From a virus (taxonomy: Duplodnaviria > Caudoviricetes): a stretch of 42,748 nucleotides of DNA. A model generated the notes under the pieces. It did no database searches. It saw nothing but the letters and a program-made list of their open reading frames with translations, and was not told the DNA's origin. Every line of letters begins with the position of its first letter. Position 1 is the stretch's first letter. The DNA lies in the IMG/VR virus record IMGVR_UViG_3300025270_001268, positions 1 to 42,748 of that record. One strand, written 5' to 3'. Below are positions 1-42,748 of this stretch, in pieces. Both the position numbers and the translations under genes were made by a program.

Positions 1-119
1 ATGGAGTTAATCACGGCCTCGTACAAGCCGAATGGCACAAGGTTGGTTCGCTCCATTTCAATCGGACCATCCTGGGCCAAGTCTAGTTCGCCGAATGGGT
101 TGTCATTATGCCTTTGCAT
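1..119 (-). CDS. 5' part of a gene running off the left window edge (MQRHNDNPFGELDLAQDGPIEM...), possibly the N-terminus of the M28-like peptidase at the right edge
   Basis: ATG at 119 with GAGGAG RBS just upstream; open frame to position 1; not in the ORF track. Confidence 0.55.
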   Translation of the reverse strand, partial: MQRHNDNPFGELDLAQDGPIEMERTNLVPFGLYEAVINS

Positions 120-522
120 TTTGTCTCCTCGTTTTGCGGTATTGGTCGTCATAGGTCATGTGGTGGTCGCCCACCTTTTCGCCGTTGGTATGTCTGCCAC
201 CTTTGTAGCTGATAACCGGGACTGGCTCCGAGTCTGGGAAGTAGTCCGACCCACAATGGACGCAAGCCAGATACGACCCGTAGTGGTCACTCTTGTGGAC
301 GAGAGCGTTGACGGCCTGGCAATGTGTGCATACGCCATCGGTTGGCATGGGAGCCACCCTAGCGCAGTAGTTTGCCGGGTTGGCCTTTTCATCCTCATAT
401 AGGTCAGCGATTCGGGCCGCTTCCCAGATAGCGTGTTGCGCTCTTAGGGCTTTGGCGTTTGGTGGATTCAACTTTGCCGCCCTAGCTTTGGCTAGTCGGT
501 TAAGTCTCCATTCAGTGGTCAT
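106..522 (-). CDS. Hypothetical early protein with Zn-ribbon motifs
   Basis: 138 aa; CTHC and CVHC pairs; purine-rich RBS (AAAGGGGG) upstream. Confidence 0.75.
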   Translation of the reverse strand: MTTEWRLNRLAKARAAKLNPPNAKALRAQHAIWEAARIADLYEDEKANPANYCARVAPMPTDGVCTHCQAVNALVHKSDHYGSYLACVHCGSDYFPDSEPVPVISYKGGRHTNGEKVGDHHMTYDDQYRKTRRQNAKA

Positions 523-548
523 TGCGGTTCCCCCTTTTAATAGAGAAT

Positions 549-583
549 TGCCGCCGTAAGTGTAGGTAAAACTTACAGCGGCA
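549..583 (-). other. Intergenic RNA hairpin
   Basis: 13-bp stem TGCCGCTGTAAGT/ACTTACGGCGGCA; the single DNA mismatch is a G-U pair on the minus strand. Confidence 0.6.
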
Positions 584-655
584 GAGCGAGGAATTAGGGC
601 GTGGCGTCCAGGCGGAGAGGCTATGGGTGATGTGACCTGAACGCCTTGCCCCTCA

Positions 656-862
656 CTAGGCCAGGACTACGGTTGCCGACGCTTTGCCGGGAGCGGTGCG
701 TCCCGGTGTTACGTTCAAATGATAGGCAATCGAGTCAACTGTGAAAGACTTATCATCCGTCCATTTCACAGTGGAGCCGACCGTCGGGATGACCTTCATG
801 GTGCGCTTGACACTGCGCCGACCGTGGTTCCCGGACTTGGGTCTGATGAACTTTACTTGCAT
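656..862 (-). CDS. Small basic hypothetical early protein
   Basis: 68 aa; strong AAGGAGG RBS; downstream of a consensus promoter. Confidence 0.8.
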   Translation of the reverse strand: MQVKFIRPKSGNHGRRSVKRTMKVIPTVGSTVKWTDDKSFTVDSIAYHLNVTPGRTAPGKASATVVLA

Positions 863-995
863 GGCTTAACCTCCTTTGTAAGATTTGGTGCCGCTGGTGG
901 CTTTTGCATCCACGTTTCCCGGTTGAGAGCCGGGTGTCCTGACTTTTCGGTCTACCTTGCGGCTGGCTTACTTCTAGACGACAGCGGTATGACTC

Positions 996-1023
996 ATTAT
1001 AGGGATGCGCAACCCTACGTCAA
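996..1023 (-). promoter_or_regulatory. Sigma70-type early promoter with a palindromic operator-like spacer
   Basis: TTGACG-16 nt-TATAAT on the minus strand; near-perfect palindrome TAGGGATGCGCAACCCTA at 1000-1017. Confidence 0.75.
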
Positions 1024-1026
1024 CCC

Positions 1027-1365
1027 CTAGAAATAGGGCAATGGTGACCCGTCCTCAAATTTATATGCCAGCGGTATCGGTGGGTAGTCGGAGCCGACGC
1101 AAAGCTCTAGTTCCCGGTGTGGGCCGATTCGCCTTGCACCGCCCTGGGCGCGGCCTGCACCTCTCCCGTGATAACCAATGCTCCGATCTTGATCGTAGTG
1201 GTTCTCAAAGAGTTCTTCGCCTTCCCCTTCAAACAGGTATGTTGCCACCGTTGCTCGACAGTGGAAGCAGACCGCTCTCCCCCGGCCTCTCCTTGTGTAC
1301 CGGGTTTTCCTTATAACGAATGGCGTATGTTCATTTGGGCCTGTTGCCCAGTTGTACTTAGGCAT
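1027..1365 (-). CDS. Hypothetical early protein
   Basis: 112 aa; AAGGAGG RBS; CFHC motif. Confidence 0.75.
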   Translation of the reverse strand: MPKYNWATGPNEHTPFVIRKTRYTRRGRGRAVCFHCRATVATYLFEGEGEELFENHYDQDRSIGYHGRGAGRAQGGARRIGPHRELELCVGSDYPPIPLAYKFEDGSPLPYF

Positions 1366-1540
1366 CTCGTTCCTCCTTTGAGTTTGCTTGTCCTAGGGTA
1401 GCAACCACAGCGGCCAACCTCAACCCCAGAGCCGGGCCAGGAGTGTGCCAGTAGCGCCGGGTAGTGCGCTGAAAGCGCCGCGCCCGGAGGGGGCCATGGC
1501 ATGTCTACGCCAGCGGTACCCCATGTAGACGAGAGCGGGG

Positions 1541-1634
1541 TTCTCAAAATTCTGCCATACTGTGACAGTGGCACCTAATGACTTAAAAAATATCATTATT
1601 TATATATACTCACAGTATGTCACAAAATTGAGAA
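1541..1634. repeat. Inverted-repeat element 1: 25-bp arms flanking a 44-bp AT-rich spacer
   Basis: Arms 1541-1565 TTCTCAAAATTCTGCCATACTGTGA and 1610-1634 TCACAGTATGTCACAAAATTGAGAA (21/25 complementary); related element at 39276-39397. Confidence 0.85.
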
Positions 1635-1646
1635 GCACCTTGGGGG

Positions 1647-1675
1647 TTGCTATTGTTAGGACAAGCTGATACATT
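1647..1675 (+). promoter_or_regulatory. Sigma70-type promoter for the replication operon
   Basis: TTGCTA-17 nt-TACATT with a TGn extended -10. Confidence 0.6.
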
Positions 1676-1826: not shown

Positions 1827-2159
1827 ATGCGCGATGACCGAGACTACCGACATCCCTCGGTTGGTCGCGAGTGCGATGAGTGCAAGGTTCCCATCGACCC
1901 GAAGACACGCCGCTGTACCTTGTGTAATCGGTACCATCCATATACCTTCCTTGACTATGACAAGGACAGGTGCGAGCATTGTGGTTCTTACAATGTATCT
2001 ATGAACGAGTTCATGGAGTGGTACTGTGACGATTGTCAACTGTGGATTGAGTCCACGAATGAGGGCAATGGTGCTACCTTTGGTGACTGCCGTGAGTGTG
2101 GCAATGGGTTTGTCAAAGACCAGAGTGAAATCGAAGATGTTTGCTATTGGTGCACATGA
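1827..2159 (+). CDS. Multi-Zn-ribbon protein
   Basis: Multiple CxxC pairs (CDEC, CTLC, CEHC, CDDC, CREC, CYWC); ATG 1827 preferred over TTG 1776. Confidence 0.75.
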   Translation: MRDDRDYRHPSVGRECDECKVPIDPKTRRCTLCNRYHPYTFLDYDKDRCEHCGSYNVSMNEFMEWYCDDCQLWIESTNEGNGATFGDCRECGNGFVKDQSEIEDVCYWCT

Positions 2160-3348
2160 CGTGGTATACTCAATTGACACGGAGGAATTGTTGGACTGGA
2201 AATCTGTCGTAGAAGAAAATTTCGTGGAATGCAGCCCGGCAGTTGCGGCCTGCCTCTCCTGCAGCGCGGCCCTACTACTAGATGACGTCAGTGTATGTCC
2301 TGCCGTTGTCTTGGTAGGGCCGCCATCAACTGCAAAGACCACAGTGCTGGACTTCTTTAGTGTAGACGGACTCACGCATAAGCTTGATGCGTTCTCTGCT
2401 AAAGCAATGATCTCGCACTTTGCCGCCGCCAGTGAATCAGAGCTCGCTAAAAAAGTAGACATGTTGCCGCAGATTAAACATAAGATTGTTTTCGTGGCTG
2501 ACCTGTCGCCCATGTTTAGCAAGCGTGTTGATGACCTGATGGAAAATATCGGTATCCTTACCCGCGTCCTTGATGGGCAGGGGTATATCTCACATAGCGG
2601 TGTACACGGTCGACGGGGCGAGCATGGGGACTATCGCTTCGGGTTCATCGCGGCTACCACCCCCATTGGTGGACAGGTATGGAGAGTAATGAGCAGTCTA
2701 GGCCCACGATTGATGTTATTTGATATGCCGGTCCACCAAGAAACTTTAGCAGAACAGCGTGATGACATGGTAGGTGTCAGCACTTATGCAGACAAGGTAT
2801 CTGCTTGTCGTGACGTTGTAAGCACAGTACTTGCTAAGATATGGAATGACAATGGTGCCAAGGTAGGCGGTCTACACTGGGATCGTGCCGCTGACCCCGA
2901 GCCGATACTAGACTACATCATTCGCCTGGCTGAGCTTGGTGTTGTACTGCGGTCAGTAGTAGCAAAGGAGAAGGTCATTACCGGGACTGAGTATGAGTAC
3001 AGCCCTGCTGTATTGGAAGGCCCGGCTCGGTATAGACAGTCACTTTACAACCTGGCTCGTGGGCATGCGTTGATTAACGGTAGACGCACTCTTGCAATGG
3101 AAGACCTTGCGTTGCCCCTGAGGATTGTCCTGTCTACTGGCCCGGTTGAGCGTCTGCGGTTGTTGCGTCACTTTATTACAGGTGGTACTATCAATAGTAC
3201 GAATCAGGCTGGTGGTATTATTGGACACGCCTGGTCTACAGCAGAGTCGGTGATGAAGCAGATGCTGCAACTTGGATTAATCAGGCATGGTAGTGAATAC
3301 TACTACCTGGATAGTAAGTACGAGTGGATAAAGGATTTACGTGTATAG
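2137..3348 (+). CDS. AAA+ ATPase, MCM-like putative replicative helicase/initiator with C-terminal winged helix
   Basis: Walker A GPPSTAKT; Walker B-like VFVADL; sensor-1-like FIAATTP; Arg-finger-like LGPRL; C-terminal helix-GLIR-YYL pattern; likely start ATG 2137. Confidence 0.65.
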   Translation: MFAIGAHDVVYSIDTEELLDWKSVVEENFVECSPAVAACLSCSAALLLDDVSVCPAVVLVGPPSTAKTTVLDFFSVDGLTHKLDAFSAKAMISHFAAASESELAKKVDMLPQIKHKIVFVADLSPMFSKRVDDLMENIGILTRVLDGQGYISHSGVHGRRGEHGDYRFGFIAATTPIGGQVWRVMSSLGPRLMLFDMPVHQETLAEQRDDMVGVSTYADKVSACRDVVSTVLAKIWNDNGAKVGGLHWDRAADPEPILDYIIRLAELGVVLRSVVAKEKVITGTEYEYSPAVLEGPARYRQSLYNLARGHALINGRRTLAMEDLALPLRIVLSTGPVERLRLLRHFITGGTINSTNQAGGIIGHAWSTAESVMKQMLQLGLIRHGSEYYYLDSKYEWIKDLRV

Positions 3349-4054
3349 TGTACAAGAGGGCTCTTTCTATTATGATGATATACTCTTGGGTGATGCGGAT
3401 GCAATTTACGTCGATAGCAAACAGAGCGATATGTTCAAATTTGTTAAACGCGGCTTGTATCCCTCCGAGTGGCCTCGCCTTGTTATTAAGCAGTTACCCG
3501 TTGGTGACTATCTCTTTGTGACCCCCGATGGCCTGACGGTGGGCATAGAGAGTAAAACTGCTGGTGACTTCCAGACGAGTAAGAATAGGCAGAGGCTACA
3601 GAGGCAGTCACGCGATCTGTTATCATCAGTAGATATTGCCATGTGGGGGCTGCTACTGCTCCCAGGTGAGGAGTGGAGTACTCCCTGCCTTACGGATCTG
3701 GTCAAATGGCAGGCGATGGGCGGCTCCATTCAGATCTTGCCTTGGGATGTATGGCAGACAGCGCAGGTTCTTGTAGAGTTGCGTATCATCATGCAACCGG
3801 GCACTCATTTAAGGAGTATCCTTAGAGGTGATGACTGGCAGAGGCCAGAGGATGTGGTGGAGTTATCCCCCTGTGCTACTGCCCTGCGTCGAATGTTCAC
3901 TGGTGTTGGTGTCAGGATAGCAATGCTACTTGACAACAAGTATGAGGGTGATATAATTAAGGCACTTAGCGCTCCTGATGACGAGTGGCGCGAGGTTAAA
4001 CGAATGAGTAAAACTATCTTAGATCAGAAGAGGAAGTTATGGAACAAGACGTAG
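3341..4054 (+). CDS. ERCC4/XPF-family structure-specific endonuclease with C-terminal HhH
   Basis: IYVDSKQ, LPVGDY...GIESKTAGDF (GDXnERKX3D variant), RLQRQ, and GVG HhH motif. Confidence 0.8.
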   Translation: MYSVQEGSFYYDDILLGDADAIYVDSKQSDMFKFVKRGLYPSEWPRLVIKQLPVGDYLFVTPDGLTVGIESKTAGDFQTSKNRQRLQRQSRDLLSSVDIAMWGLLLLPGEEWSTPCLTDLVKWQAMGGSIQILPWDVWQTAQVLVELRIIMQPGTHLRSILRGDDWQRPEDVVELSPCATALRRMFTGVGVRIAMLLDNKYEGDIIKALSAPDDEWREVKRMSKTILDQKRKLWNKT

Positions 4055-24127: not shown

Positions 24128-24156
24128 AGTATACCAGGTCTACTGCCTATTGTCAA
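24128..24156 (-). promoter_or_regulatory. Sigma70-type promoter for the scaffold/capsid/tail genes
   Basis: TTGACA-17 nt-TATACT with TGn extension. Confidence 0.8.
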
Positions 24157-27100
24157 GACCCCACTCCAGCAAGCGAAGGACTGATATCATAAGTAGTGGT
24201 AGGGGCTTCTGGTCGAGTAGGCCTGGATTGTGCAGCTAGGGTTCTCTTTGCTTCTATTAGTCTACCTGCAGGAGTTAATGCAGAGTAGTCATAGAACTCA
24301 ACAAGAAGTGCATCAATAGTTGGGTTAGCCTTTCTAAATCGATCTTGAACCTTATCAAGTATTCTTAGAAGTCTTGTAATCTGAGGATGCCTTGCTTTAA
24401 AGTGGGCTTTTGCTTCTCTAGTTCGGGCACCACGCCAATGATGAATCAGATCTGCACCCTCAGAGCTAAATCGTGTATCGGGCAAGTCCCAGAACTCACC
24501 TAGTTGTTCATTACGAGCAATTGATAGTCGCTGTAAACTAGGAGGTAACAGCTTACCTTGTGTTCTCATATCCTGGATATATTTCCAGGACGCTGCACCA
24601 TAGTTCTCGACCATAAAGTCTTCAAATACCTGCTGTCGACGCTTAAATTCATCGGAGTCAAAGTTACCATAAATATCGTGTAGGGCAGCACTACCAGTCA
24701 CTTCTTGCCTGTACCTATCATACCAGTGGTCAAAAACAAACTGGTCTGCAACAGTATTCATATCACCTAGTCGACGCTCGTTAAACGTAGCAATGACATC
24801 TGCATATGTTTCAGCGAGTTGCTGATTTGCACCTCTATTTTCAGCCTCTAGTGTCTCCCATCTTTCACGCAATTGTTTTCCCGTTATTTCGTAGTTCGCA
24901 AACTGCTCTTCTAAACCTTTTAGCTTCATTTCTAGACCGAATGGTTCACCAAACTCTGGCCCGCGCCCTTTTCTATTAAGCCTTACATGGTTGATATACT
25001 CGTCTTGACGCTTTCGTATGTATGAGCCACGACGCTCTACATCTTCACTAATTTCAACCTCTAAGTCTTGTAGAGCAGGATGTCTTTCAACTAGCTGCTT
25101 AAGTAGAAGTTTTGGAATAGTGTCACCATCTATAGGTAAGTCCTTGCTTTCCTGCTCTTGCTTCCATTTCATTAAAGCAGGATCCTCATCTATTAAGATA
25201 GCTACATTTCTAGCAGTCTTTAATCGACCATATGCAGATTGTGGGCTTGTCCGAAGACCAAAGAACTCAGCTAAACCAGCAGAGGGAGGCATGTCTTTAC
25301 TGCCCCATATGGAGTCCTGAATAGTATCAATCCAGAAAGGCATGAGTGACCTAGATATTCGGTCACCAATCTTATTGACCTCCCAGCCTCCAGTAGTATC
25401 ACGAAGAGGGTCGCCTATAAAATCCTGTCCTGTACCTATATCAATACCTATTGAGGTTATTGGAGAGGAGCCTGACCGGAACCACTTTAACAGACTGTTG
25501 TCACTGAAGTTTACCTCAAGTAAGCCTCCTGGATCGTCTACCATTTGATCCGTAATATCTTTACCCATGCGTATAAAACTATAGAAGGGTGTTCCAATAC
25601 CTACACGCATACCACCTACTTTAACTGACATAAAGTCTGCAGAGCCAGGTGTGAGTACGTCGTCATTAAGACCTGCAGATTTAATGGCCCAAGCAATTCC
25701 TGCCCCTGCGGCCAACATACCCGTTACTGACTCTAATGCCATTCCTCGACGCCACTTACTTGTTGACATCAAGTTCTTCATTACAGCGATTGAAGACCTT
25801 CTATACAGTGCCGCGTATAGTAGGAAAGCGGACTCAAAATTACGCTGCTTTGATGGTATACCCACTGCAGCAGGTTGTAAGGTACCATGAATAGCATTCA
25901 TACTAGCTGCCACATCGTTGAGAGCGTCTTCCATTTTTTGACGCTCCTTAGGAGTTGGCTCCTTTGGATTACCTAAATTATCGACAGCTCCAAAATGTTG
26001 TTTAATCATCTTCGATTGGACTTTCCACATCTCTGTCTTAGAGACATCAAGGAAGAATCCAAATCCATTCATCATACGTTCAGGTACTGTCCAGGCAAGT
26101 TCAACACTTCTTTCAAATTGCTTTATGCCAGGCTTCTTTAATCCTGGTCGGCCTCGTCCTTTAGTGAACATGCCCGGAAGGGGTAGGTCTTCAATATGGG
26201 TCGATCGAAAGAAAGCAATCCCGTATTTTTGCATCTCTCGTCTAGTTTCTTGTGTGCGCGTATACCACTCTGTGCGCACTTTGGGTGACCACATAGCTCG
26301 ACCCATATTATATGAGCCTTTGGCCCATGCAAAACGCTGGCCCATAGGCATAAAGACATTTGGTGATGCCATCATACCTATACCACCAATACCATGTAGT
26401 AGCATAACACCAAGGTCAGCACCAGTTGCAAGTACACGCATCGTATTTGCTAGAGCAGACGGTACAGTTAAAAACGCACTCGACTTTGAAAATTCATCAG
26501 AAAATAAGGCTGCAAATTCTCGACTTGCTTCAGGAGGTAATGCTGTTCCATGAAGAGGGTGTCGTTTCATTACTCCTTTTTGTACTGCTTCTCTAAGTTC
26601 TAAATTCTTCCAGTTCGTGGACATCTCTATGATCTCTTTTTGTTTCCTTGCTATTTTTTCATCAGACATCTCACGCCATTTAGGCCCAAAATGCTTTTGA
26701 GCAGACATTTGATTCCCATAGGATAGCTCTTCTCCGCTAGCCTTGTACTCCTTTATTCGTTCAAGCATCTTCATTGCTGTCGATGTCTCAGTGTGCTTAA
26801 TACCAAGTTTTGCAAACTCGTCCATAAAGCGTTCGGTAGCTACATAGTCATAGTAAGACTCAGCTTGTCTTTGTAAGGCTAGTATTGGATCAGTATTGTA
26901 TAAGTCATGTTTAATTCTACCAACACCCTGTCCCTGATCCATTTTATTTGCAATCTGCCAGTAGTAGTCATGTCGTTTCATTTGACTAGGACGCATACCC
27001 ATCTTACCTGCACCTGCTTGGAAACCAACTCTGATATCTGAGCTTTGTTCCAAGAATAGAGAAGGTACAAAGCTGGCCCTAAACTTGCCTGCAGCTTTAC

Positions 27101-30100
27101 CTAAAATAGAGTTCTTAGAGTCTACATCGAAACCTGATTTTCGTAGCATCTCAACTAAATGAGGCCCAACTTGATGGTAGTTGTCCCACCACTTTAATTG
27201 CTCGGCTGTTAATTCATAGTATCTAAAAAGATCTGTTCTGGATGTATTGAGCACAGTCGTTAAATCTTGCATTACCTCTAAGTGATTATATTTTTGACGC
27301 TCACGAATAATACGCTTATCTGTCCACGTCGCAGGATCTGCCTTTTGGAATGCTATAAATCTTTGTTCCATCTCAGCAATTGGACCCCAGACCTGACCAC
27401 TTTCGTGAATATCTACCGGGCCAACGGCTGCATTTTTAGGTGATTTTTTTACACCCTCATACCTAAAGTAATCCATATTTTCTAGGAACCCATTGTCATT
27501 AAGTTGACCTGTTCGGGGGTTAACACCAACACCACCTTTAAGTCGTATTTTTGTACCCCGACCATTACGCCGGTTAGAGCCAAATGCGTCGTGTAGCTGA
27601 TCGAGCATATGTCCAATATTACTGGACACCTCTTGGCCCTCGCCCTTAGAGAAAATATACTTCCATCGAAGCTTAGCTGCTGGTGTTGCAGCAAAAGTCT
27701 GAGGTACAAAGAACCGGGTAAACTTACGAAACTTTGATGGGAACCTATTGAAAAAACTCTCAAAAGTCTTTCGGAAACTATCCCCCGCGAATCGCATTGT
27801 CTGATCCATGCCACGAGGGAGTATTATCGTCTTACCTATAGGATGATAATTTCCTTGTTCATCACGCCACGTAAACTCATCTGTAACTCTTGACCACTCA
27901 TCTTCTGGAAGAGGTGCTGATGTTGGAGTTCCAGGCTCACCAGGGGGTGGTCGCCCATCGCCACCACGTCCACCTGGAGGTGCGTCTGCTGTTAGCGCTC
28001 CCCACCTACCTGAAGCTGTACCACCTTCTTGATTCCACAGGTCTATAATCTCGTCGCTCCATCTATAGTATGTGCTGCTTCCTTCACCTCCCATACGAAT
28101 AAGATAACCGTTATTCTCTAGTCTTTTTCTAGTGTAAGCTGTATTATACTCACCCTTGGGTGCAGTCATAGCTCTCATGCTTCTTGCGCCAGCTTGTCTG
28201 GTAGCATCACCGCCGTAGTTCATAATGGCACTTAATACTGAGGCTGCGGTTAACCCACCTGATTTACCTGACGCTGAACCTCTAATCATATGAGGTGAGA
28301 ATTGACGAGCTGACGAAACTGACCACTGACCCCAGTTCATGAGAGGTATTCTTTGGGGTAATTTATCACCTCTTGCGCGAACAAACTGGTTATCTTTAAC
28401 ATGTACAGAAGCAAGCATTTCAGCTTCTACATGCACTATATCCTCAACCTTATCCCCTACCTTCCAATAGGAGCCGTCTTTCATTATATAACCAGTAATC
28501 ATCCAGTGGTCATTCATACCCGCACGAAAAAATTCATACTTGGATGCACTTAGATTGGGTAGTTCTTTTGTACCTCGTCGTGGACTAATAATATAGCCAA
28601 TACCGCTATTCGCAAGCTCGTCTTTGGCTTCTGCAGACATTTCGTTAAAGATCTTCTTTTCTGCTCTAGCGGCTGCACTTAAACCTTTACCCTTTCCTTT
28701 AAGAGCTTTCTCCGTCATCAGACTAAGACTTTTAAAAATTGGAATAGCAAATAAACTTTCATGTTTCGGTGCGTAGGCTCCACTCCGACCTTGCTTTTTT
28801 GTTGAGATATCTCTTTTAATTAGAGCATCTTCCATCTGCTTAAAGGCTGCATTTAATTTAGATGTTTCTTGATTGTAGTCAATTTTAATTTGTATTGTCT
28901 CTTTTGCATCCGCGCCATGAACTAACTTTTTCGACTCTTCAAGCTTCAACAGATACTGGTCTTTAAGTTGAAGAACAGGCTCGTACCATGATAGGAGCAT
29001 AGCCTGTTGTTCCTCTGCATCTTTACCAATTTTTGAGTAAACATCTTTAGTTGCCTGATCTAGCTTTTTACTTGACTTACCCATCACCTCTTTTGATGTT
29101 TTAATAAGCTGCGCTTCGCCTGCTGCTGTTATCAGTTGTACAGCAAATACGGATAATGCTTCTACCATAGTAAGAGATTCTGTTATTTCGTCTTGAGCAG
29201 CCTTTGCTCCCTGTCCCTTAATCTTACTAATAAATATTGGGGGGCTGTACTCTACATTTCGGTCGATCGCTTTGTCTAGCATTTGCATCCGAAGTTCATT
29301 AAGAGCATTTTGGACTTCTATTCTGACAGGGTCAGTGTAACCTTTCCTGGAGAGTCCTGCTGTTGCTAGGTTAGTAAATACATTTAAACGATTTGGCCCC
29401 TCTGTCGGGCCTCCCAGCAACTCAAGTTTAGTCTTCATTCTTTTCGTCTTCTCGCCCACCTTCCCTTTGCCACCAAGGTAACCTGACTTTGCATCTCTTG
29501 TATGAGTTGCTAACTCTGGGTTTGGTTCGTCAATTAATTGCCAGAACTCAAGTGCTTCATCCGGATCATGTGCGGGCACAACATTAAACCGTTCGTATAA
29601 ATCATCACTTAATTGATTTATAAAGTCATCTTCTAGTAGACTAGCGACCTCACCATTTTCCTTTAAGATAGCTTCACCGGCCTCATCCGTTTGAGTTCCA
29701 AGTCTTCTAAGAAGAGTTAGTGCGTCTATATTTAGAGTGTGATTCATTAATGATATGTATATAGAGGTATTAACTATACTACTATGACCTAATACATCCT
29801 TAGCATTTACAATATTATTTGTGCCCCCTTTTGTATATACTGCATTCGCTTTAGACAGTCTAAGTACATATGTGTAGATACCATTACCAGAATAGAAGTC
29901 AATGAGACCTGGCCCAAAGTCTGCAAAGTCTAAATGATTACCCGCCTCTGCAAACATCTCATTAAGTCTTTTAACAGGAGAAAATGGATCTTTATCTCCC
30001 TTTGCAACTGCCTTGCCAGGTAACTTAAAAGCTGGTTGAAACTTCTCAGTATCCCATTTACTGTAATCTAGCTTAATGTCTCTATAATCTTTTAAGAAGG

Positions 30101-31574
30101 TAAAAGCCTCATCATCTAATAAACGCTGACTTGCTTCTTTGTCACTATGTCTAAGAATAAGCGTCTTTCTTGTCTCAGTACTGTTTATTGTATTTTCAAG
30201 TTCGTCCCACCTAAGAAGAGGAATCTCATTCGGTCTAATACCTGTATGAAATAAAAGCTTTAAAGCCCACTGAGCCATTATACCTTCTTCTCCAAATTCA
30301 GCCCAGTAGTCATTGCTAAATATCATCTGCTGCAGACCTTCACGGTTTGGTGCTTCACGTATAGAAGCTTTAAAGACCTCCTTACCCGTAACTGGGTCTA
30401 TTACTTTACGCCACGGTAGTCCTGATAGTAGATTTAAATCGCTTTCAAAGTCTGTCCCGAAAACATTTAGCATCTTTTGGTATTCTATTGGTATCGAAGC
30501 GTATAAGGATCTTACGTCATCAGTAATATCCAAATCCTTGAGAGCCGCCTCATAACTAACTTTCCAGGCAGCATCTGCCTCCTCTGCGGCAGTATCTCGT
30601 ACACCTTCTGGGCCACCTTCAAAACGTGCACCGTCATCAGGATGACCTTCAGGGCCACGACGTGGTTTATCCTGGACGAGTCGACCAAATTGGTCTCGAT
30701 GCCCCACGAACTCTCCATTTATAACAGCCTTATCAAACTCTTCAGCGACTTTTACAGCAGCAGCTACTTCTCGATCCATGTACTCCGCTTTGTTTATATA
30801 GGCTTTTTTCAGATTTCGTGCCCGCTTCATATACTCAATTGATTCACGAACTGAATGACCTTTACCTGTAAGCCTTGCCATTGTCAAAGGTACTTTACCC
30901 AGTTTAAGTGCTGCACCCAAGGGTATTAAATTAAGTGGGTCAAGAATAATCTCCATAGGTAGGTGAACACCCATAGGTACACCAAAGCCTTTCTCACGAA
31001 CAGCAGGAGTTAAGAACCCTTCTTTCCACCAAGGCTGATTTGGATTTTCTTGCTTCCACTCTCTGACGCCACGCTCAATATCTTGTTCGCCTGGTATAAT
31101 TTTAGCAAAGTTGTAAAGTAACTGTGCGGTAATTTCTTCACCTGGGAAAGATACTGCACTAACGGTCTGAGAGACACCAGGAATACCCATAGCTTTAGAC
31201 AGACCACCCATTAGGCCATTTCTAATAGACTCTCCAAAACTTTTTAGGTGACCACCAAGACTACGCTGCGCATCTGCCTTCTCTTCTGGAGGAGCATTCT
31301 CTACCTCGGCAGCATACTCTAGAAACACTGCCGTAGCGTCTTCAGGAGATAAACCATGGAACGACGGAGGTGGTATTTTAAAGTCATTTCTAGTTGCTAG
31401 ATGCTCAACAAGAAGCTCTAGCTCAACACGAGCATCGATATGCTTCTGTTTTTCATTTGCAAGCACAGGAACAGGTATTGCCCTATAGGCCTTCTGCTGG
31501 GCATCTAAGCCCATTATATCTTTAGACCAGTAGTCAGCTCCTGATTGTCCGGGCACTAATCGATCTTGAGTCAT
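24153..31574 (-). CDS. Giant polyvalent putative ejection/internal virion protein containing a tyrosine-recombinase domain, a wHTH-like segment and an LPD38-like C-terminal region
   Basis: 2473 aa in the virion operon; HTGIRPNE, YVLR and LGHSSIVNTSIY motifs; RLENNGYLIRMGGEGSSTYY; SPITSIGIDIGTGQDFIGDPL. Confidence 0.75.
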   Translation of the reverse strand: MTQDRLVPGQSGADYWSKDIMGLDAQQKAYRAIPVPVLANEKQKHIDARVELELLVEHLATRNDFKIPPPSFHGLSPEDATAVFLEYAAEVENAPPEEKADAQRSLGGHLKSFGESIRNGLMGGLSKAMGIPGVSQTVSAVSFPGEEITAQLLYNFAKIIPGEQDIERGVREWKQENPNQPWWKEGFLTPAVREKGFGVPMGVHLPMEIILDPLNLIPLGAALKLGKVPLTMARLTGKGHSVRESIEYMKRARNLKKAYINKAEYMDREVAAAVKVAEEFDKAVINGEFVGHRDQFGRLVQDKPRRGPEGHPDDGARFEGGPEGVRDTAAEEADAAWKVSYEAALKDLDITDDVRSLYASIPIEYQKMLNVFGTDFESDLNLLSGLPWRKVIDPVTGKEVFKASIREAPNREGLQQMIFSNDYWAEFGEEGIMAQWALKLLFHTGIRPNEIPLLRWDELENTINSTETRKTLILRHSDKEASQRLLDDEAFTFLKDYRDIKLDYSKWDTEKFQPAFKLPGKAVAKGDKDPFSPVKRLNEMFAEAGNHLDFADFGPGLIDFYSGNGIYTYVLRLSKANAVYTKGGTNNIVNAKDVLGHSSIVNTSIYISLMNHTLNIDALTLLRRLGTQTDEAGEAILKENGEVASLLEDDFINQLSDDLYERFNVVPAHDPDEALEFWQLIDEPNPELATHTRDAKSGYLGGKGKVGEKTKRMKTKLELLGGPTEGPNRLNVFTNLATAGLSRKGYTDPVRIEVQNALNELRMQMLDKAIDRNVEYSPPIFISKIKGQGAKAAQDEITESLTMVEALSVFAVQLITAAGEAQLIKTSKEVMGKSSKKLDQATKDVYSKIGKDAEEQQAMLLSWYEPVLQLKDQYLLKLEESKKLVHGADAKETIQIKIDYNQETSKLNAAFKQMEDALIKRDISTKKQGRSGAYAPKHESLFAIPIFKSLSLMTEKALKGKGKGLSAAARAEKKIFNEMSAEAKDELANSGIGYIISPRRGTKELPNLSASKYEFFRAGMNDHWMITGYIMKDGSYWKVGDKVEDIVHVEAEMLASVHVKDNQFVRARGDKLPQRIPLMNWGQWSVSSARQFSPHMIRGSASGKSGGLTAASVLSAIMNYGGDATRQAGARSMRAMTAPKGEYNTAYTRKRLENNGYLIRMGGEGSSTYYRWSDEIIDLWNQEGGTASGRWGALTADAPPGGRGGDGRPPPGEPGTPTSAPLPEDEWSRVTDEFTWRDEQGNYHPIGKTIILPRGMDQTMRFAGDSFRKTFESFFNRFPSKFRKFTRFFVPQTFAATPAAKLRWKYIFSKGEGQEVSSNIGHMLDQLHDAFGSNRRNGRGTKIRLKGGVGVNPRTGQLNDNGFLENMDYFRYEGVKKSPKNAAVGPVDIHESGQVWGPIAEMEQRFIAFQKADPATWTDKRIIRERQKYNHLEVMQDLTTVLNTSRTDLFRYYELTAEQLKWWDNYHQVGPHLVEMLRKSGFDVDSKNSILGKAAGKFRASFVPSLFLEQSSDIRVGFQAGAGKMGMRPSQMKRHDYYWQIANKMDQGQGVGRIKHDLYNTDPILALQRQAESYYDYVATERFMDEFAKLGIKHTETSTAMKMLERIKEYKASGEELSYGNQMSAQKHFGPKWREMSDEKIARKQKEIIEMSTNWKNLELREAVQKGVMKRHPLHGTALPPEASREFAALFSDEFSKSSAFLTVPSALANTMRVLATGADLGVMLLHGIGGIGMMASPNVFMPMGQRFAWAKGSYNMGRAMWSPKVRTEWYTRTQETRREMQKYGIAFFRSTHIEDLPLPGMFTKGRGRPGLKKPGIKQFERSVELAWTVPERMMNGFGFFLDVSKTEMWKVQSKMIKQHFGAVDNLGNPKEPTPKERQKMEDALNDVAASMNAIHGTLQPAAVGIPSKQRNFESAFLLYAALYRRSSIAVMKNLMSTSKWRRGMALESVTGMLAAGAGIAWAIKSAGLNDDVLTPGSADFMSVKVGGMRVGIGTPFYSFIRMGKDITDQMVDDPGGLLEVNFSDNSLLKWFRSGSSPITSIGIDIGTGQDFIGDPLRDTTGGWEVNKIGDRISRSLMPFWIDTIQDSIWGSKDMPPSAGLAEFFGLRTSPQSAYGRLKTARNVAILIDEDPALMKWKQEQESKDLPIDGDTIPKLLLKQLVERHPALQDLEVEISEDVERRGSYIRKRQDEYINHVRLNRKGRGPEFGEPFGLEMKLKGLEEQFANYEITGKQLRERWETLEAENRGANQQLAETYADVIATFNERRLGDMNTVADQFVFDHWYDRYRQEVTGSAALHDIYGNFDSDEFKRRQQVFEDFMVENYGAASWKYIQDMRTQGKLLPPSLQRLSIARNEQLGEFWDLPDTRFSSEGADLIHHWRGARTREAKAHFKARHPQITRLLRILDKVQDRFRKANPTIDALLVEFYDYSALTPAGRLIEAKRTLAAQSRPTRPEAPTTTYDISPSLAGVGS

Positions 31575-37288: not shown

Positions 37289-38787
37289 TACTGCCTCAAC
37301 ATAAGAGCTTCAAAAGGATCACCCCGCAGACTATCATCCATACCACCAAGATAGTTACTTACAGAGCTAGTCCCCCACTCATCTTCTAGTTCTTCATAGT
37401 CCTCAGCTTCTGGCCTACTTGTACCGTAGTAGAACAAGCCCCAATAACCAAGTGCGCTACATGCATGGTTATTCGCCGGTTCGGGCTTACCATTCTTCAT
37501 CTTCCAGATACGCACACCCTCAACAGGGGACTTACCCCGGCCCATCTCAGCAATGGTTCCGACGCAATGCCGATCTACTTGAAGCCGGGGTCGTCCCGTC
37601 AGGGGGGATATAGTTAAGAAGGAGCGAAGTCTCTCAACGACATCTTCAACACGACGCTTCTTCATATTAAACCGAATATCTGTATCATCCATCCACCGTT
37701 TCGCTGTAGGCGGGTCACCATCATGATGCTGACTACCTGCAATATCCATTACATGCTTGCCACGACCTACATTTGCCCATTGAACCCGCATCCGTGCCTC
37801 ATTAATGATCTCCTCATGAGACCACTTATTCGCATAGATCTCATCAATTACCCGTACTGTGCCATCAACGACCTGTATAAATAGTACCGCATAGACAAAA
37901 TGACCAGGATCAATTGCCATATGAACTGGTAGGTCAGGTCGAAAAGAGAAGTCACCAACATGAAGCTTTGCATCAAATTCAGGCAAGACGGCATCAGTGG
38001 GTGCAGTTATGACACCGCCATGCCGCCGCATAAAGCGGTCATACGACATGCTGCCTTCCAACTGGACTATCGCAGGGTCTTCACGACCTCCTGGATAGAC
38101 TGACGGATTAGCCCAGGAAGGGAGATGGTAACTCCGAATATCTCGATCATTATCATGGTCACCCATGTTGACAAGCTCATCAAACCATCCTGCATTCAAT
38201 TCCGGACTTCCACTAAACCAGCCCCAGCTATGAGGATACAGACGTGCTAGGCGTCCATAGCAGCGCTCCCAGATCTCCTCACCCCACAGAGAGACCTCAC
38301 AGCCTATAATGCCTGTTGGCTCCTCACGACCTATCTTCTGAGCATCATATCCAGAAATGGTACGGAAGATTTGGTTATATCGCTTAGTTTGGAGAACACA
38401 AGGCTGATCATATCGGGCTGGTGCGCTAGTACGATCACTATTGAGATCTCCAAGAGAACGAAGCCAAGGTAGCAGCATATCATCCATTTCCAGGGATCCA
38501 AACTCACGGCGAGCTGTTTCAAAATCATGACCTACTACCCAATATAAATTACCAAATCCAGTGTTCAGAAGGCTGGCTGCCATCGCGTCATGCTGACTAC
38601 GAGCTACACCATATAGAGAGCCCATAAAGGACTTGCTGCTACCTTCTCCACCACAAAGAATCTTTATACGAGCATCGTCATAAAATATTTCTATCTGCTC
38701 AGGAGACAATGTGACACCAAGGTGTTTTACTACCTCACGCGCTGTATCCTGCCAGGCCGGGACTTGGATGCCGTCAATCAATGGCAA
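37288..38787 (-). CDS. terL: Terminase large subunit
   Basis: Walker A GGEGSSKS; GSPE coupling motif; PSWANP; RNase H-like AIDPG and VIDEIY. Confidence 0.88.
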   Translation of the reverse strand: MPLIDGIQVPAWQDTAREVVKHLGVTLSPEQIEIFYDDARIKILCGGEGSSKSFMGSLYGVARSQHDAMAASLLNTGFGNLYWVVGHDFETARREFGSLEMDDMLLPWLRSLGDLNSDRTSAPARYDQPCVLQTKRYNQIFRTISGYDAQKIGREEPTGIIGCEVSLWGEEIWERCYGRLARLYPHSWGWFSGSPELNAGWFDELVNMGDHDNDRDIRSYHLPSWANPSVYPGGREDPAIVQLEGSMSYDRFMRRHGGVITAPTDAVLPEFDAKLHVGDFSFRPDLPVHMAIDPGHFVYAVLFIQVVDGTVRVIDEIYANKWSHEEIINEARMRVQWANVGRGKHVMDIAGSQHHDGDPPTAKRWMDDTDIRFNMKKRRVEDVVERLRSFLTISPLTGRPRLQVDRHCVGTIAEMGRGKSPVEGVRIWKMKNGKPEPANNHACSALGYWGLFYYGTSRPEAEDYEELEDEWGTSSVSNYLGGMDDSLRGDPFEALMLRQ

Positions 38788-39175
38788 CTACATTTCCCTC
38801 TGTGATATCTTCTTCAATAACTGTAACAGCCGATGTTGCTTCTGCCGCCTCATTAACCTTAATACGGAAAGCAGCCTCAATTTGCATAGCAGGTGGTGTG
38901 TCGTCTTCGCCGTCATGCAATGTGAACCCCATCTTTGCAGGTAGCTCTAAAAGACGTAATAGCACCTTTGTGTCTCCCAAAGCTGCTTGCTGGATCGCTA
39001 ATTCGATTAATGAGTCGTAGTTCTCAGCGAGTTGCAGTAATCCCGACCGTACAGCACCCTGTAGCTGCTTGGCTAATGATTTAGCCTCAGCAATCTGTGC
39101 TTTAAGCTCAGGGGGTCTGCCAGCTCGTGCGCGTCTACCACCATGGCCGTTATAGTTGGCGTTATCTGCACTCAC
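38774..39175 (-). CDS. Putative terminase small subunit
   Basis: GGRRARAGRP motif, helical, upstream of terL; GTG 39175 inferred as start because a promoter overlaps the longer ORF. Confidence 0.65.
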   Translation of the reverse strand: MSADNANYNGHGGRRARAGRPPELKAQIAEAKSLAKQLQGAVRSGLLQLAENYDSLIELAIQQAALGDTKVLLRLLELPAKMGFTLHDGEDDTPPAMQIEAAFRIKVNEAAEATSAVTVIEEDITEGNVVAID

Positions 39176-39181
39176 AACTCT

Positions 39182-39211
39182 ATTATACCACATATAGCCT
39201 TGTCTATGCAA
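39182..39211 (-). promoter_or_regulatory. Sigma70-type promoter of the packaging/virion operon
   Basis: TTGCAT-18 nt-TATAAT with TGn extension. Confidence 0.7.
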
Positions 39212-39275
39212 CCACAATGGCTAACATCAGCTATGAAGGGTCTATAGTAATACTTACTATCATGATACTACATAC

Positions 39276-39397
39276 CTCTCAATTTTCTGCCATACTGTGA
39301 GGGGAGCGATATACCTATATATATAAAAATAATAATGTTTTTTAAGTGAATACTGGCTAGCGCTCTCTGTGTACACAGTATGTCATAATATTGGGAG
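39276..39397. repeat. Inverted-repeat element 2: 25-bp arms flanking a 72-bp spacer with an AT-rich core
   Basis: Arms CTCTCAATTTTCTGCCATACTGTGA (39276-39300) and ACACAGTATGTCATAATATTGGGAG (39373-39397); homologous to 1541-1634. Confidence 0.85.
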
Positions 39398-39673
39398 TTT
39401 CGCACATATGTTCTACAACCAGCCCGCAGTTAATCAAGGCGCCGAATTCGTTACTTAATGCTCAAAATGCTCTGTTTGACGCCAGATCAGCCGCGAAATA
39501 GCCCAAATTGGCGACTATTGGCCCCAAATTTACGATTTTAAGGGCAAAAACAGTGCCAAAACAGCCCAAATTCAAAAAAATATGGAGGGATACTTACGCG
39601 CGATGTAGAAGGTCGGAGTGCGAACGGTTGAACCACCTGGCCAAGCATCTCTCGGGGCTTCGCATCTGAATGC

Positions 39674-39708
39674 AAAAGAGCGGCCAACTTGTGACCGCTC
39701 TCTTTTTT
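39674..39708 (-). terminator. Intrinsic terminator ending the early operon, possibly bidirectional
   Basis: AGAGCGGTCA-loop-TGGCCGCTCT stem flanked by A/T tracts on both sides. Confidence 0.7.
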
Positions 39709-39755
39709 ATCTAGGCTCCGCTAGTGGTTACCTACCCCCACCCCCATTGATTGGC

Positions 39756-40103
39756 TTAGTGGATACTTGCACCAACCATCGGGGCTTCCCCTTCGTGGAG
39801 TAGACCGTAGCATTGGCACCCCGTCCACAACTGCCCATCAGGTGTCCTCGCACCTACATCGGGATGGCCGCACCGCACATAGACTCCATCCAATATCCAA
39901 GCTTGGTTGGTGTAGTCATACCCATTCTCAACCTTGGGATGATTCATTGACACATGGCCTTCCAATGTTGCCAGTGTCCCTTGGATTACATCACCACACA
40001 TCAGGCATGGCCGCGCCATCTTCTTCTTCTCTGTCCCGGTGTAGAAGATGGGCTTTGGCCGATGGGCTTTGACTATCTGGGCATCCGTTAACTCTCTAGC
40101 CAT
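39756..40103 (-). CDS. C2H2-type Zn-finger hypothetical protein
   Basis: CLMC...HVSMNH; start MARELT with GGAGG RBS and TAATG coupling. Confidence 0.7.
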   Translation of the reverse strand: MARELTDAQIVKAHRPKPIFYTGTEKKKMARPCLMCGDVIQGTLATLEGHVSMNHPKVENGYDYTNQAWILDGVYVRCGHPDVGARTPDGQLWTGCQCYGLLHEGEAPMVGASIH

Positions 40104-40222
40104 TAGTTGCTTCCTCCGAATATCTCGATTGCGCCAACCACGGCGAACACTCCCACAACCCATACCGCCACCACTAGATGTAGGGCCACCACTACCCACC
40201 AGGCTTTAACTTCGTCAAACAT
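40103..40222 (-). CDS. 39-aa membrane peptide
   Basis: AGGAG RBS; long hydrophobic stretch. Confidence 0.6.
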   Translation of the reverse strand: MFDEVKAWWVVVALHLVVAVWVVGVFAVVGAIEIFGGSN

Positions 40223-40350
40223 ACGCGCTCTCCTAAAATAGAATGAAGCCAGGCTATCACGCCCGGCCTCAAACTGTCTACCCATTACACTGCCCGATTA
40301 GGGGCAGTAGTAAGAGTGACCAACCCATCAACACAACCCATCGCACTACA

Positions 40351-40641
40351 TCACCCTTGTCCCTCGCTGTTGGTTCGGACTATCTCTCGCCATTGCACCA
40401 TGTCGAAAGCCGCCGCCAATAGGTCGCAATATATCCCCGTAATCCCTGGCTCGTCATTGTTGTCCTTGCCGGGGCTTACCCATTCGCGGATTGCATCGGC
40501 CTGGTCGCCCAGAGTGTCGCAACTCTGAACGATAGACATTAGCCGCTCGTAGCAATGAGGCTCAGTGGTCAACCAAACATTGACGCACCATGTCTCATAA
40601 TTGGGCCATCCTTTATAGCCGCGCTCGTCATTAGTAATCAT
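40351..40641 (-). CDS. Conserved phage hypothetical protein (GWxNYETW type)
   Basis: YKGWPNYETWCVNVWL motif; start MITND with GGAG RBS. Confidence 0.75.
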   Translation of the reverse strand: MITNDERGYKGWPNYETWCVNVWLTTEPHCYERLMSIVQSCDTLGDQADAIREWVSPGKDNNDEPGITGIYCDLLAAAFDMVQWREIVRTNSEGQG

Positions 40642-40897
40642 GCTCTGTCTCCCATGTTGTCCAGTAGCAGTCAAACTCGGGCCATTCTTGCTCTTCGTCC
40701 CATCGCCGCTGTTGTTCCTTGAATGCTTCCCTGAATCCCTCCGGTTCGTGTTCCTCGCAGTAGTGGTCGTCGCCAAACACATACCCGGTCTTGAAGCCTA
40801 CCGCGTCGCAGGTCTTACAAACACGGGCCAGGTCGTCAAGTTTGACCCGGCCTTTGTCGGTGACTTCATACGGTATCGGCTGGTCTAGTCTAGCCAT
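40631..40897 (-). CDS. Small Zn-binding acidic protein
   Basis: CKTC...CEEH; AGGAGG RBS before MARLDQ. Confidence 0.7.
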   Translation of the reverse strand: MARLDQPIPYEVTDKGRVKLDDLARVCKTCDAVGFKTGYVFGDDHYCEEHEPEGFREAFKEQQRRWDEEQEWPEFDCYWTTWETEHDY

Positions 40898-40979
40898 GTT
40901 CGCCCTCCTAAAATGCAAGATGGCCGCACCGTAGCACGACCACCTTTCCCATGTCTAGTTGTCTGGCTCCCGGTTTTAA

Positions 40980-41522
40980 TCAGTTCCGGTGTTCCTCCTC
41001 GTCCCAGGCAACGTACACCCGGTGGGCCTTCGCCGCTCGCCGCCCATTGATTCGACTTAGAAACTCCGTCACCTTCTCGCTGATTGTTATGCCCATGTCC
41101 TGGTAGGGGTCGGACTGGACCGAATCCAGTACGTCCCGGGCCATCTGGGCATTTTCGGCGGCGATCTCCTTGTAGTCGCTAGCGGCGGAGCCTGTCAGCT
41201 TGGCGGTACTCTCCAACCCTGCCGACGCGAGTGCCATCAACAGCTTGTCGATTTCGTCCTTGAGCCAGCCCATTTGGATGCCTTCAATGTTCCCGGCGTA
41301 TATCTCAACGTCTAGATGGGCGCTGAGTAGCAGTTCATCTTTGTCCCAGTTGGTCGCCGTTGTCTCGACGAATGTGCCAGTGGGCGAGAAGCCGCACTCC
41401 GGACACCCGGCCTCGTCGGTCACGCTAGTGTGGTCACCAGCCATCTGTATTGGCCAGCGGTAACGACATTGCAGACAAACGCGGTTCGTGTCGCCCTGGA
41501 AGTTCTCCCAACTTGCTGTCAT
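40980..41522 (-). CDS. Zn-ribbon hypothetical protein
   Basis: CLQC...CPECG; AGGAGG RBS before MTASW. Confidence 0.7.
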   Translation of the reverse strand: MTASWENFQGDTNRVCLQCRYRWPIQMAGDHTSVTDEAGCPECGFSPTGTFVETTATNWDKDELLLSAHLDVEIYAGNIEGIQMGWLKDEIDKLLMALASAGLESTAKLTGSAASDYKEIAAENAQMARDVLDSVQSDPYQDMGITISEKVTEFLSRINGRRAAKAHRVYVAWDEEEHRN

Positions 41523-41596
41523 ATGTCCTCCTTCATCTAAGCTTGAGCCAGAGTATAAACAGTCCAATAGCTATCCAGCTAATAGGTAACGTCAGT

Positions 41597-42748
41597 TCAC
41601 CAGCTTGAGTACCCATACTCCCGTAGGAGAGGGTCAATAGGCACATCCCTTTGCAAGCCGTCTTGCCAGGCCAACAACTCCGGGAGAAACGTAGGAAAGA
41701 ACGTGTCCATAAACTCTTTAGTCTCTGGTGAGTCCCAATCCACATCCGCAAGCGAGCGGTAATCGCCTGCGTAATCGTCCCAGACTGCGCCCGGTATCGT
41801 TGTCTCGATGTAGCGTATGGGTGACAGCGACGGCGATCTAAAACTTTTGGAAGTACCCATGCCTTGTGAGGATAGGTAATTACCAACCCAGGCGCGTTCC
41901 AGCGGTGCTTGATGTACCACTGGTGTAACCGCTGGTGCAAGCTCCAACAGCCATTCGCGTCCGTGTAAGGAGTACTGGTCTTTGCCCTGATGCCGTCCAA
42001 CCGTGGTGGAGGGCTTCGGCGGCACATGATTGAATTGCGTTTCACTGTACTTGCTCCAAAACGCATAGAGCCTGTTCAACTGTTCCTCTGTCTCCTGGGG
42101 CTTCCAGAACGCATTGGTGGTGTGTTCGTTGTAGTAACCGATGCCCATGTTGACGCAAGCGGTTCCGAGTTTCTCCAGATAGCCAATGTCGGAAAAGCTA
42201 CCATGCCCTATGGTGAATTGAGATTCCAATGCCGATAGCCAATCCTTATCCTTGTAATCGTAGGTCACCACATCGGTTCCCCTACGGTCAAAGCCGATTA
42301 TCCAGTTGTACGCCCTGGGGGCTTGGAAGTAAGCGGCGGTGGATTCTCCGTCTTCCTCGCAGTCGGTGAATAGTAGGTCAGCCCATGACCCACATCCAAG
42401 AGCGAGAGCGCACCCTAGACGGTCGTCCACCACCGGGCCACCAAGCTTCGCGGCCTTCTCTGCTACCCATTCCTCCGACAATACCTCCAACTCGTCTTTA
42501 GGTATGGTCGTCGGCGCAACTGGCTCGTTGTCCTGTGGAAACCAGTAGCCAGTGTTCTTGAATCTGTATGGGCCAAAGTTGGGTACAGTCGGAAGCGGTA
42601 GGTTACATCCGTACCGCTCGACCCAGGCCGCGTTTTTGCTGTCACTGGGGATAGTGGGAACTACAAAATCAGTGTGGGCCACAATTAGAATCTTCTTGCC
42701 GTTGTCCTGGTGGACTAGCAAGTCGCCTGATCGTGGCTCATACACATC
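41597..42748 (-). CDS. M28/M42-clan zinc peptidase-like protein, probably 5'-truncated at the window edge
   Basis: AHTD, DDRLG, CEEDG, FDRRG, YYNEHT metal-ligand motifs; frame open to the window end. Confidence 0.8.
   Translation of the reverse strand, partial: DVYEPRSGDLLVHQDNGKKILIVAHTDFVVPTIPSDSKNAAWVERYGCNLPLPTVPNFGPYRFKNTGYWFPQDNEPVAPTTIPKDELEVLSEEWVAEKAAKLGGPVVDDRLGCALALGCGSWADLLFTDCEEDGESTAAYFQAPRAYNWIIGFDRRGTDVVTYDYKDKDWLSALESQFTIGHGSFSDIGYLEKLGTACVNMGIGYYNEHTTNAFWKPQETEEQLNRLYAFWSKYSETQFNHVPPKPSTTVGRHQGKDQYSLHGREWLLELAPAVTPVVHQAPLERAWVGNYLSSQGMGTSKSFRSPSLSPIRYIETTIPGAVWDDYAGDYRSLADVDWDSPETKEFMDTFFPTFLPELLAWQDGLQRDVPIDPLLREYGYSSW

Follow-up and report, generated by a model that had tools for sequence, protein, structure and literature searches.

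Why should a tailed phage keep, at two boundaries of its gene map, an AT-rich core enclosed by a pair of inverted 25-bp arms? The question is raised by an uncultured phage genome (the window, by which I mean the whole stretch analysed, a single record of 42,748 bp that is not a closed circle). The original prediction took the two elements for paired protein-binding sites, either targets of a recombinase domain embedded in a phage protein or twin opposed origins of replication. Both elements lie where it placed them, at 1541-1634 and 39276-39397.

Two elements on one phage map

The gene set is that of a tailed phage (PolA, exonucleases, a Sak4-like protein, terminase, major capsid protein and tail fibre), and the runs that hold the window stretch are marine, seawater or aquatic metagenomes in 20 cases out of 20. 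Among cultured phages nothing matches the AAA+ protein and the terminase is matched only at about 25%. A search of species genomes by terminase alignment for integrated relatives gave 0 of 87 candidates. A contig 99.8-99.9% identical to the window (L034) closes the gap between the window's two ends with a further 1,088 bases, and the full map comes to about 43.8 kb. Because the window lacks those 1,088 bp, the elements are 5,979 bp apart on that map and not, as first supposed, at the borders of an early region of ~4.9 kb. As to other genes, PolA (7942-10197) has an N-terminal domain of the uracil-DNA-glycosylase superfamily, the tail fibre gene contains two tandem 111-bp copies (19351-19572), and no primase gene was recognised in the window.

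Read in the direct sense, the left arms of the two elements are identical at 22/25 positions and the right arms at 20/25, as had been claimed, while the inverted cross-matches between elements are 22/25 and 19/25. Within each element the arms are complementary at 21/25 and 20/25. The motif common to all four, TGNCATACTGTG, has exactly four perfect matches in the window, and its matches with two mismatches number five, fewer than expected by chance; the motif scan of the window found no other arm copies. A generic scan of the window (arms of at least 20/25, spacer of 30-100 nt) returned only these two elements, and 40 order-2 Markov simulations returned one element in total. In an unbiased search for repeated non-coding 24-mers the arms were the top family in the window.

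The two AT-richest 30-bp segments of the genome fall within the cores (29/30 and 27/30), and every TATATATA run of the genome is located inside them. The cores are related, as proposed: that of element 2 runs opposite to its homologue in element 1. An even core length, from 42 to 72 bp, is found in 14 of 14 elements (window, L036-L046 and G001), a count that covers about 9-10 lineages which are not independent; TA slippage may account for some of this regularity.

Table 1. Features of the window that bear on the two elements
Feature	Position	Strand	Remarks
Element 1, arm type a	1541..1565	+	central 6-mer TCTGCC at 1551-1556
Element 1, AT-rich core	1566..1609		44 bp
Element 1, arm type b	1610..1634	-	central 6-mer TGTGAC (outer-to-inner reading) at 1619-1624
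Element 2, arm type a	39276..39300	+	6-mer TCTGCC at 39286-39291, same as element 1
Element 2, AT-rich core	39301..39372		72 bp
Element 2, arm type b	39373..39397	-	6-mer TATGAC (outer-to-inner reading) at 39382-39387
Early region, part one	39398..42748	-	continues via the 1,088 missing bp into 1-1540
Early region, part two	1..1540	-	transcription directed away from element 1
Replication-operon promoter	1647..1675	+	sigma-70-like, TTGCTA-17-TACATT; consensus match only
AAA+ protein	2026..3348	+	MCM-like motifs by eye; weak C-terminal winged-helix match; start codon uncertain
Giant protein	24153..31574	-	2,473 aa, 0 cysteines; between portal and scaffold/capsid genes
Tyrosine-recombinase catalytic domain	29700..30362	-	in giant protein, about aa 405-625
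Putative small terminase gene	38774..39217	-	first of packaging/structural operon; inferred from position
Sigma-70-like promoter	39182..39211	-	TTGCAT-18-TATAAT; 64 bp from element 2; consensus match only

Element 1 separates the divergent early and replication operons, and element 2 sits where the early operon ends, ahead of the putative small terminase gene. Sigma-70-like promoters lie outward of both, in agreement with the claim that each element stands just upstream of an operon's promoter. Further sigma-70 promoters lie inside the replication region (3930-3957, plus strand) and the early region (1023-996, minus strand), at 12/12 and 11/12. A direct match of 19/24 (GCAACCACA..., at 1401-1424 and 39208-39231) is common to the promoter regions of the early operon and the terminase. 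The first part of the early region holds about 350 bp of non-coding DNA with CCCAAATT repeats, a terminator-like hairpin, small genes and a peptidase. Three CCCAAATT-type repeats, at 39502, 39523 and 39565, lie in the conserved non-coding stretch beside element 2 (39398-39755), which is a candidate packaging or end signal; one more follows element 1, at 1698.

Arms, cores and relatives

The terminase led to 14 metagenome loci: three of the same phage, eight at 90-96% identity and three at about 50%. All eight close relatives have window-type arms at element 2 (in L039 a single arm, at the start of the contig), and one of them, L041, also carries element 1. In all eight the cores vary while the arms persist. 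Seven of them are complete; the five more distant among these keep 17-23 of the 25 arm positions and only 5-7 of the downstream flank. Across relatives the core changes freely in sequence within its 42-72 bp, retaining a loose directional motif. The core of L038 is reversed with respect to element 2 of the window (local score 52 reversed, 36 in the same sense), and in a co-occurring strain, found among loose contig ends and joints, the arm of element 1 is kept beside a different core, which by eye runs in the opposite sense.

The clade with a terminase about 50% identical (L010, which is G001, with L042, L044 and L045) has the same layout, its arms largely keeping the outer 17 positions and replacing the inner 8. 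In G001 the arms were again the top family of the 24-mer search, once its terminal overlap is discounted. Both of its elements are at the same gene boundaries as those of the window, about 5.7 kb apart, with early genes largely different from the window's; its core orientation was left unused, since the local alignment scores are too weak. The gap between elements is nearly constant (5,979, 5,984 and about 5,701 bp), and the large terminase follows element 2 after about 0.5-0.6 kb in all 12 relatives with that element. The arms, then, persist where cores and downstream flanks are replaced, and the distant clade retains the arrangement with arms of altered sequence, which supports the reading as paired protein-binding sites. 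Window-type arms were not found in 22 viral loci at 31-47% terminase identity. Two pattern scans were set aside: viral contigs with two inner arm halves 45-75 bp apart gave eight matches, none related by tblastn and all taken as chance, and a second arm pattern gave three, of which one was already known (L066, the contig of L009) and two were unrelated coding sequence.

The arms have an anatomy of their own. The best dyad inside the near-clade arms has its axis between positions 13 and 14, which makes positions 11-16 a 6-bp centre, and its score was reached by 26 of 2000 column shuffles. The arms of G001 have no such dyad, the best score there being reached by 1517 of 2000 shuffles. When the window is scored with a half-site matrix made from four relatives, its four arms come out on top (18.6-21.6, the next at 9.6).

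There are two arm types, a and b, told apart by the central 6-mer. Across the two elements of the window the 6-mers agree like with like, 6/6 for a and 5/6 for b, and in both L041 and G001 the agreement is 6/6 for each type. Within one element, a and b agree at only 4/6, in every element of these three genomes, which are the ones that have both elements; the window and L041 are close kin. In the window and L041 the order of the matching arm pairs is direct; in G001 it is inverted. Within an element the mismatches concentrate at positions 8-12 and 15 of the arm. The arms of one element disagree at position 12 in each of the 13 elements compared, which are not independent, span perhaps six lineages and by themselves give no significance.

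The sister clade offers a looser resemblance. Its terminase is 43-47% identical, the recombinase domain is present in G002-G004, and the helicase of G002 is of the AAA_25/RepA type. The unbiased 24-mer search found no arm family in G002, G003 or G004. By eye there is a family of the form TTCATGAA-N6-TTCAGTA, and a matrix made from two loci finds, in 8 of 13 loci, dyads scoring at least 15 whose spacer is strictly 6 bp, far above other spacers, a count that includes the two loci that built the matrix and a family that was found after the fact. In four of four long loci two clusters of these dyads flank a segment of 240-460 bp between divergent operons, with a TA run in three of the four. Their geometry is as in the window and their sequence is different. 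The TTCATGAA half-site also occurs in tandem arrays with a 14-bp period (L012:5983-6081; L014:107-190). G005, one GC-rich genome whose repeat list is crowded by a terminal overlap and which served as a negative control, has no recombinase, and among its top repeats there is no AT-core element.

A recombinase domain in a giant protein

What might bind such arms? The giant protein of Table 1 is long and free of cysteine, and a cysteine-free protein between portal and capsid genes fits an ejection protein of the podovirus kind. From its position, size and composition I infer that it is one; a profile search gave no match for its C-terminal part or for the ejection role. Within it, residues R447, Y569-x-x-R572, H597 and Y606 make up, in order, the catalytic set of a tyrosine recombinase. 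The R, R, H and Y are found in five aligned homologues, in G001 by eye, the alignment having misplaced it. The score to PF00589 is 18.6 bits, below the curated cut-off of 27.1 (relatives score 19.5-26 bits). The domain also matches phrog_216 weakly, XerD and IntI4 at E 4e-5 and Phage_integrase clusters at 0.96. A structure model of pLDDT 50 has its best fold matches in XerH and XerA, none at E 0.001. Ahead of the catalytic domain, in a stretch that is variable among homologues, no Pfam or PHROG match to a core-binding (SAM-like) domain was found.

The domain is widespread. Eleven of the 12 giant proteins examined have it, nine by profile (window, P0003, P0004, L041, L039, G001, G002, G004, G008) and two by weak profile with motifs by eye (G003, G006); that of G005 lacks it. 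Among the best 150 cluster representatives are 11 proteins of more than 2,000 aa, in nearly all of which the domain occupies a like position, and a search for longer proteins with the recombinase stretch gave no match. On the co-occurrence check suggested with the original prediction, G002-G004 count against the recombinase reading: they carry the domain, the unbiased repeat search gave no arm family in them, and their dyads came to light later, by eye. The giant protein of L041 (15763-19017) is about 30% identical to the window's and its terminase 95%, so giant genes appear to be swapped or to evolve fast as a module.

I propose that the arms are sites of this recombinase domain, likely for closing or resolving genome copies. 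The proposal is tentative, with a probability of about 0.4. Each 25-bp arm would likely be a core recombination site, its central 6 bp the strand-exchange region, and the giant protein is predicted to enter the cell together with the DNA. The difference between a and b would stop the two arms of one element from recombining together, and exchange would join a to a or b to b, on different copies of one element. The likeliest use would be to circularise incoming DNA that is terminally redundant, or to join or resolve sister genomes. The reversed cores of some relatives might then come from rare mis-pairing of a with b.

The case for a recombinase target has grown stronger through the like-with-like 6-mers, the dyad of the near clade and the 6-bp spacing of the sister-clade dyads; the arms of G001, with no dyad, count against it. 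Homology in the central region is a standard requirement of tyrosine recombination. Exchange between like copies would explain why neither the orientation of cores nor the relative polarity of the two elements is conserved, and why there are no new junctions, for closure by like copies leaves none behind. It is less likely that the early region is routinely flipped or excised, since the polarity of the two elements is direct in the window and L041 and inverted in G001, and since no such product is among the listed joints. Against the proposal, no element-to-element or strand-change joint is among those listed for contigs of eight runs, though contigs drop rare variants. Single contigs also span the window's arrangement, at element 1 in X1, X7 and X15 and at element 2 in X1, X4 and X7. 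A freely flipping core or early region is disfavoured by the single arrangement in all of this strain's assemblies and bridging contigs.

The proposal has its costs. The arms agree at 19-23/25 between the window and L041 and at 22/25 with L039, despite recombinase domains only 30-38% identical to the window's, although the helix-YxxR stretch is common to the domains of that clade. The arms track the terminase genes (77-95%) more closely than the recombinase domain, which counts against a recombinase site. Isolated catalytic domains show topoisomerase-like nicking behaviour, and, with no core-binding domain detected, the phage domain could be a non-specific nickase of that kind. Since a1 and a2 form a direct repeat in the window, deletion of the early region would be possible and must somehow be blocked; the model leaves this block unexplained.

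There is a well-known precedent for the geometry. In E. coli, dif is a 6-bp central region flanked by two half-sites of partial dyad symmetry, and the description in PMC5357621 extends this form to other Xer sites, the single-recombinase systems XerH/difH and XerA/dif among them. The best matches of the phage domain are XerD in sequence and, as modelled, XerH and XerA in fold. The likeness ends there: dif sites are 28 bp long, while the phage arms are 24-25 bp, enclose an AT core as inverted pairs of a and b, twice per genome, and by eye share no evident sequence with dif. Unlike Xer, the phage enzyme is a domain in a protein of 2,473 aa encoded in the structural operon, its core-binding domain undetected. 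As to the job proposed, joining like sites on redundant ends or resolving multimers, the nearest system is Cre-loxP of phage P1. Cre is a stand-alone enzyme made after infection, and circularises terminally redundant P1 DNA at one 34-bp site; the phage considered here has two types among its four arms, each shorter than loxP, and its enzyme is predicted to travel in the virion.

Other uses for paired arms

The most serious rival is that the elements are replication origins, the adjacent AAA+/winged-helix protein, a candidate initiator or helicase, binding the arms and the AT-rich core, with its TA runs, being the place of unwinding. This I consider unlikely, though several observations favour it. 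In archaeal ORB origins, HSV oriS and the SaPI ori, inverted initiator boxes surround an AT-rich spacer, and element 1 shares with them the boxes, the TA-run spacer and a neighbouring AAA+ gene. The replication operon follows element 1, no DNA of the genome is richer in AT than the cores, and these keep a loose directional motif. Two elements so arranged occur in just those two clades whose genomes encode the AAA+ protein (window and G001), and are absent from G002-G004. The Atlas neighbours of that protein include a cluster in which 18% of members carry PF27228 MTBMA_p00010, which I take to be the family of an archaeal plasmid Rep. In an unrelated virus, L079, an inverted repeat of 18/22 with an AT-rich spacer lies at the end of the AAA+ homologue. 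Core orientation would be irrelevant to a bidirectional origin.

Other results do not fit an origin. Why should a second copy stand at the terminase gene, distant from the replication genes? The two copies set the elements apart from the initiator-box origins named above and from lambda ori (PMC5043065), a further comparison. The like-with-like matching of the 6-mers is likewise unexplained. In the GC-skew check suggested with the original prediction, skew goes with the direction of the genes, and no change accompanies element 2. No such element was found at three of four independent, unrelated loci with an AAA+ homologue (L069, L078, L080-82), a weak negative because the same scan missed element 1 of G001. 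The AAA+ structure model reaches a pLDDT of only 31, and comparison with solved initiators gave no match. Of the twin opposed origins first imagined, the co-occurrence with the AAA+ protein stands; the opposed orientation is not fixed, with the core of L038 reversed and element polarity differing between clades. If the elements were origins after all, they would be the first defined for this group of AAA+ proteins. Two AAA+ homologues have surroundings of their own: that of L079 has AAAGTGA(C/A)A direct repeats before it as well as the long inverted repeat at its end (L079:1800-1960 and 3271-3412), and one 37% identical (L069:2943-8264) is in a small element of a Zixibacteria genome, by eye between two serine recombinases.

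Next comes the possibility, an improbable one, that the arms are signals for packaging or ejection, bound by the small terminase or a virion protein, no recombination being involved. Lambda cosB has inverted terminase sites around an AT-rich bend, and T5 has an injection-stop signal. The place of element 2 about half a kilobase ahead of the large terminase in 12 of 12 relatives speaks for such a signal, as do arms that track terminase identity and a gap between elements (about 5.7-6.0 kb) that stays near constant though the early genes of G001 differ. The same can be said of a 262-bp terminal overlap in G001 (C1:1-262 and 44291-44552), which begins a few bases from element 2; it may be a true terminal repeat or an assembly overlap, and its three mismatches count against the former. 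Contig starts upstream of element 2 are spread over 159-1859 bp. A long terminal repeat of the T5 or SPO1 type should double read depth over the bracketed region. The coverage check gave early/unique contig depths of 0.90, 1.13 and 0.93 in three runs, which speaks against such a repeat, though strain variation could mask a rise.

It is quite improbable that the elements are operators for an activator or repressor of the replication and packaging promoters. Each does lie directly upstream of a sigma-70-like -35 box, 3-12 bp away for element 1. For element 2, the distance to the terminase promoter varies from 5 to about 64 bp over 13 loci, with no fixed helical phase; a replacement of 38 bp by 6 bp was observed in three runs, and no regulator gene was recognised in the window.

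Less probable again is that each element is one folded site, its arms pairing as a stem with unpaired centre and variable loop. All four strands do fold with arms paired (z of -3.1 to -5.2), as would any inverted repeat, and the mismatches gather at arm positions 8-12 and 15. There are two precedents. The integron attC site, with its unpaired central spacer and variable terminal structure as described in PMC2727003, resembles the elements in its paired outer and inner boxes, its non-complementary centre and a loop variable in length and sequence. The phage elements share the unpaired centre and the variable terminal structure, but they have no extrahelical bases, the arms aligning without gaps, no cassette array, and an arm sequence that is strongly conserved. 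The attP of CTX-phi consists, according to PMC4246890, of two inverted dif-like sites 90 bp apart, and is alike in its inverted sites, unlike central regions and short spacer (42-72 bp here). It differs, on the same description, in belonging to a single-stranded genome with one attP integrated by host XerCD, whereas this phage has a double-stranded genome, two elements and its own recombinase domain. The tailed double-stranded DNA gene set and arms unlike dif by eye set the window apart from phages with a CTX-phi-type attP (IMEX). A double-stranded genome argues against folded sites in general, and in G001 the arms match better from one element to the other (21-22/25) than they pair inside an element (16 and 19/25). 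An Rfam search gave one match, AT-driven and far under the gathering score.

Chance repeats or relics of small transposons are scarcely credible: a size of 92-122 bp and terminal inverted arms do recall miniature transposons, but the copies number just two and keep their places in two clades that are 50% apart, with conserved arms, unconserved cores and, by eye, no target-site duplication. Hairpin telomeres were rejected by reasoning, as the palindromes stop after 25 bp and the flanks are unique.

To return to the arms as sites of the giant protein's recombinase domain, what appears new is not the geometry of the sites, which is of a known kind, but their pairing, their placement and their link to a recombinase of virion type. 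It is somewhat unlikely that an Xer-like recombinase injected from the virion within a giant ejection protein circularises or rearranges the genome at the a/b arms before phage genes are expressed. A literature search, with most subscription papers outside its coverage, found nothing on a tyrosine recombinase as a phage ejection or virion protein or on an injected circularising recombinase. The polyvalent proteins of phages are alike in being giant, multi-domain and proposed to act on incoming DNA; the main text of Iyer et al. 2017 (PMC5512222), whose supplements may list such a domain, has no instance of 'integrase' or 'recombinase'.

If the proposal is true, the arms are the missing target of a recombinase domain that is kept across an uncultured marine phage family. 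A virion-delivered recombinase could then be tested with defined substrates, two arm types in three natural sequence variants. It would be a compact recombinase with naturally heterospecific sites, and it would give a phage a novel way to protect or reorganise its DNA at entry.
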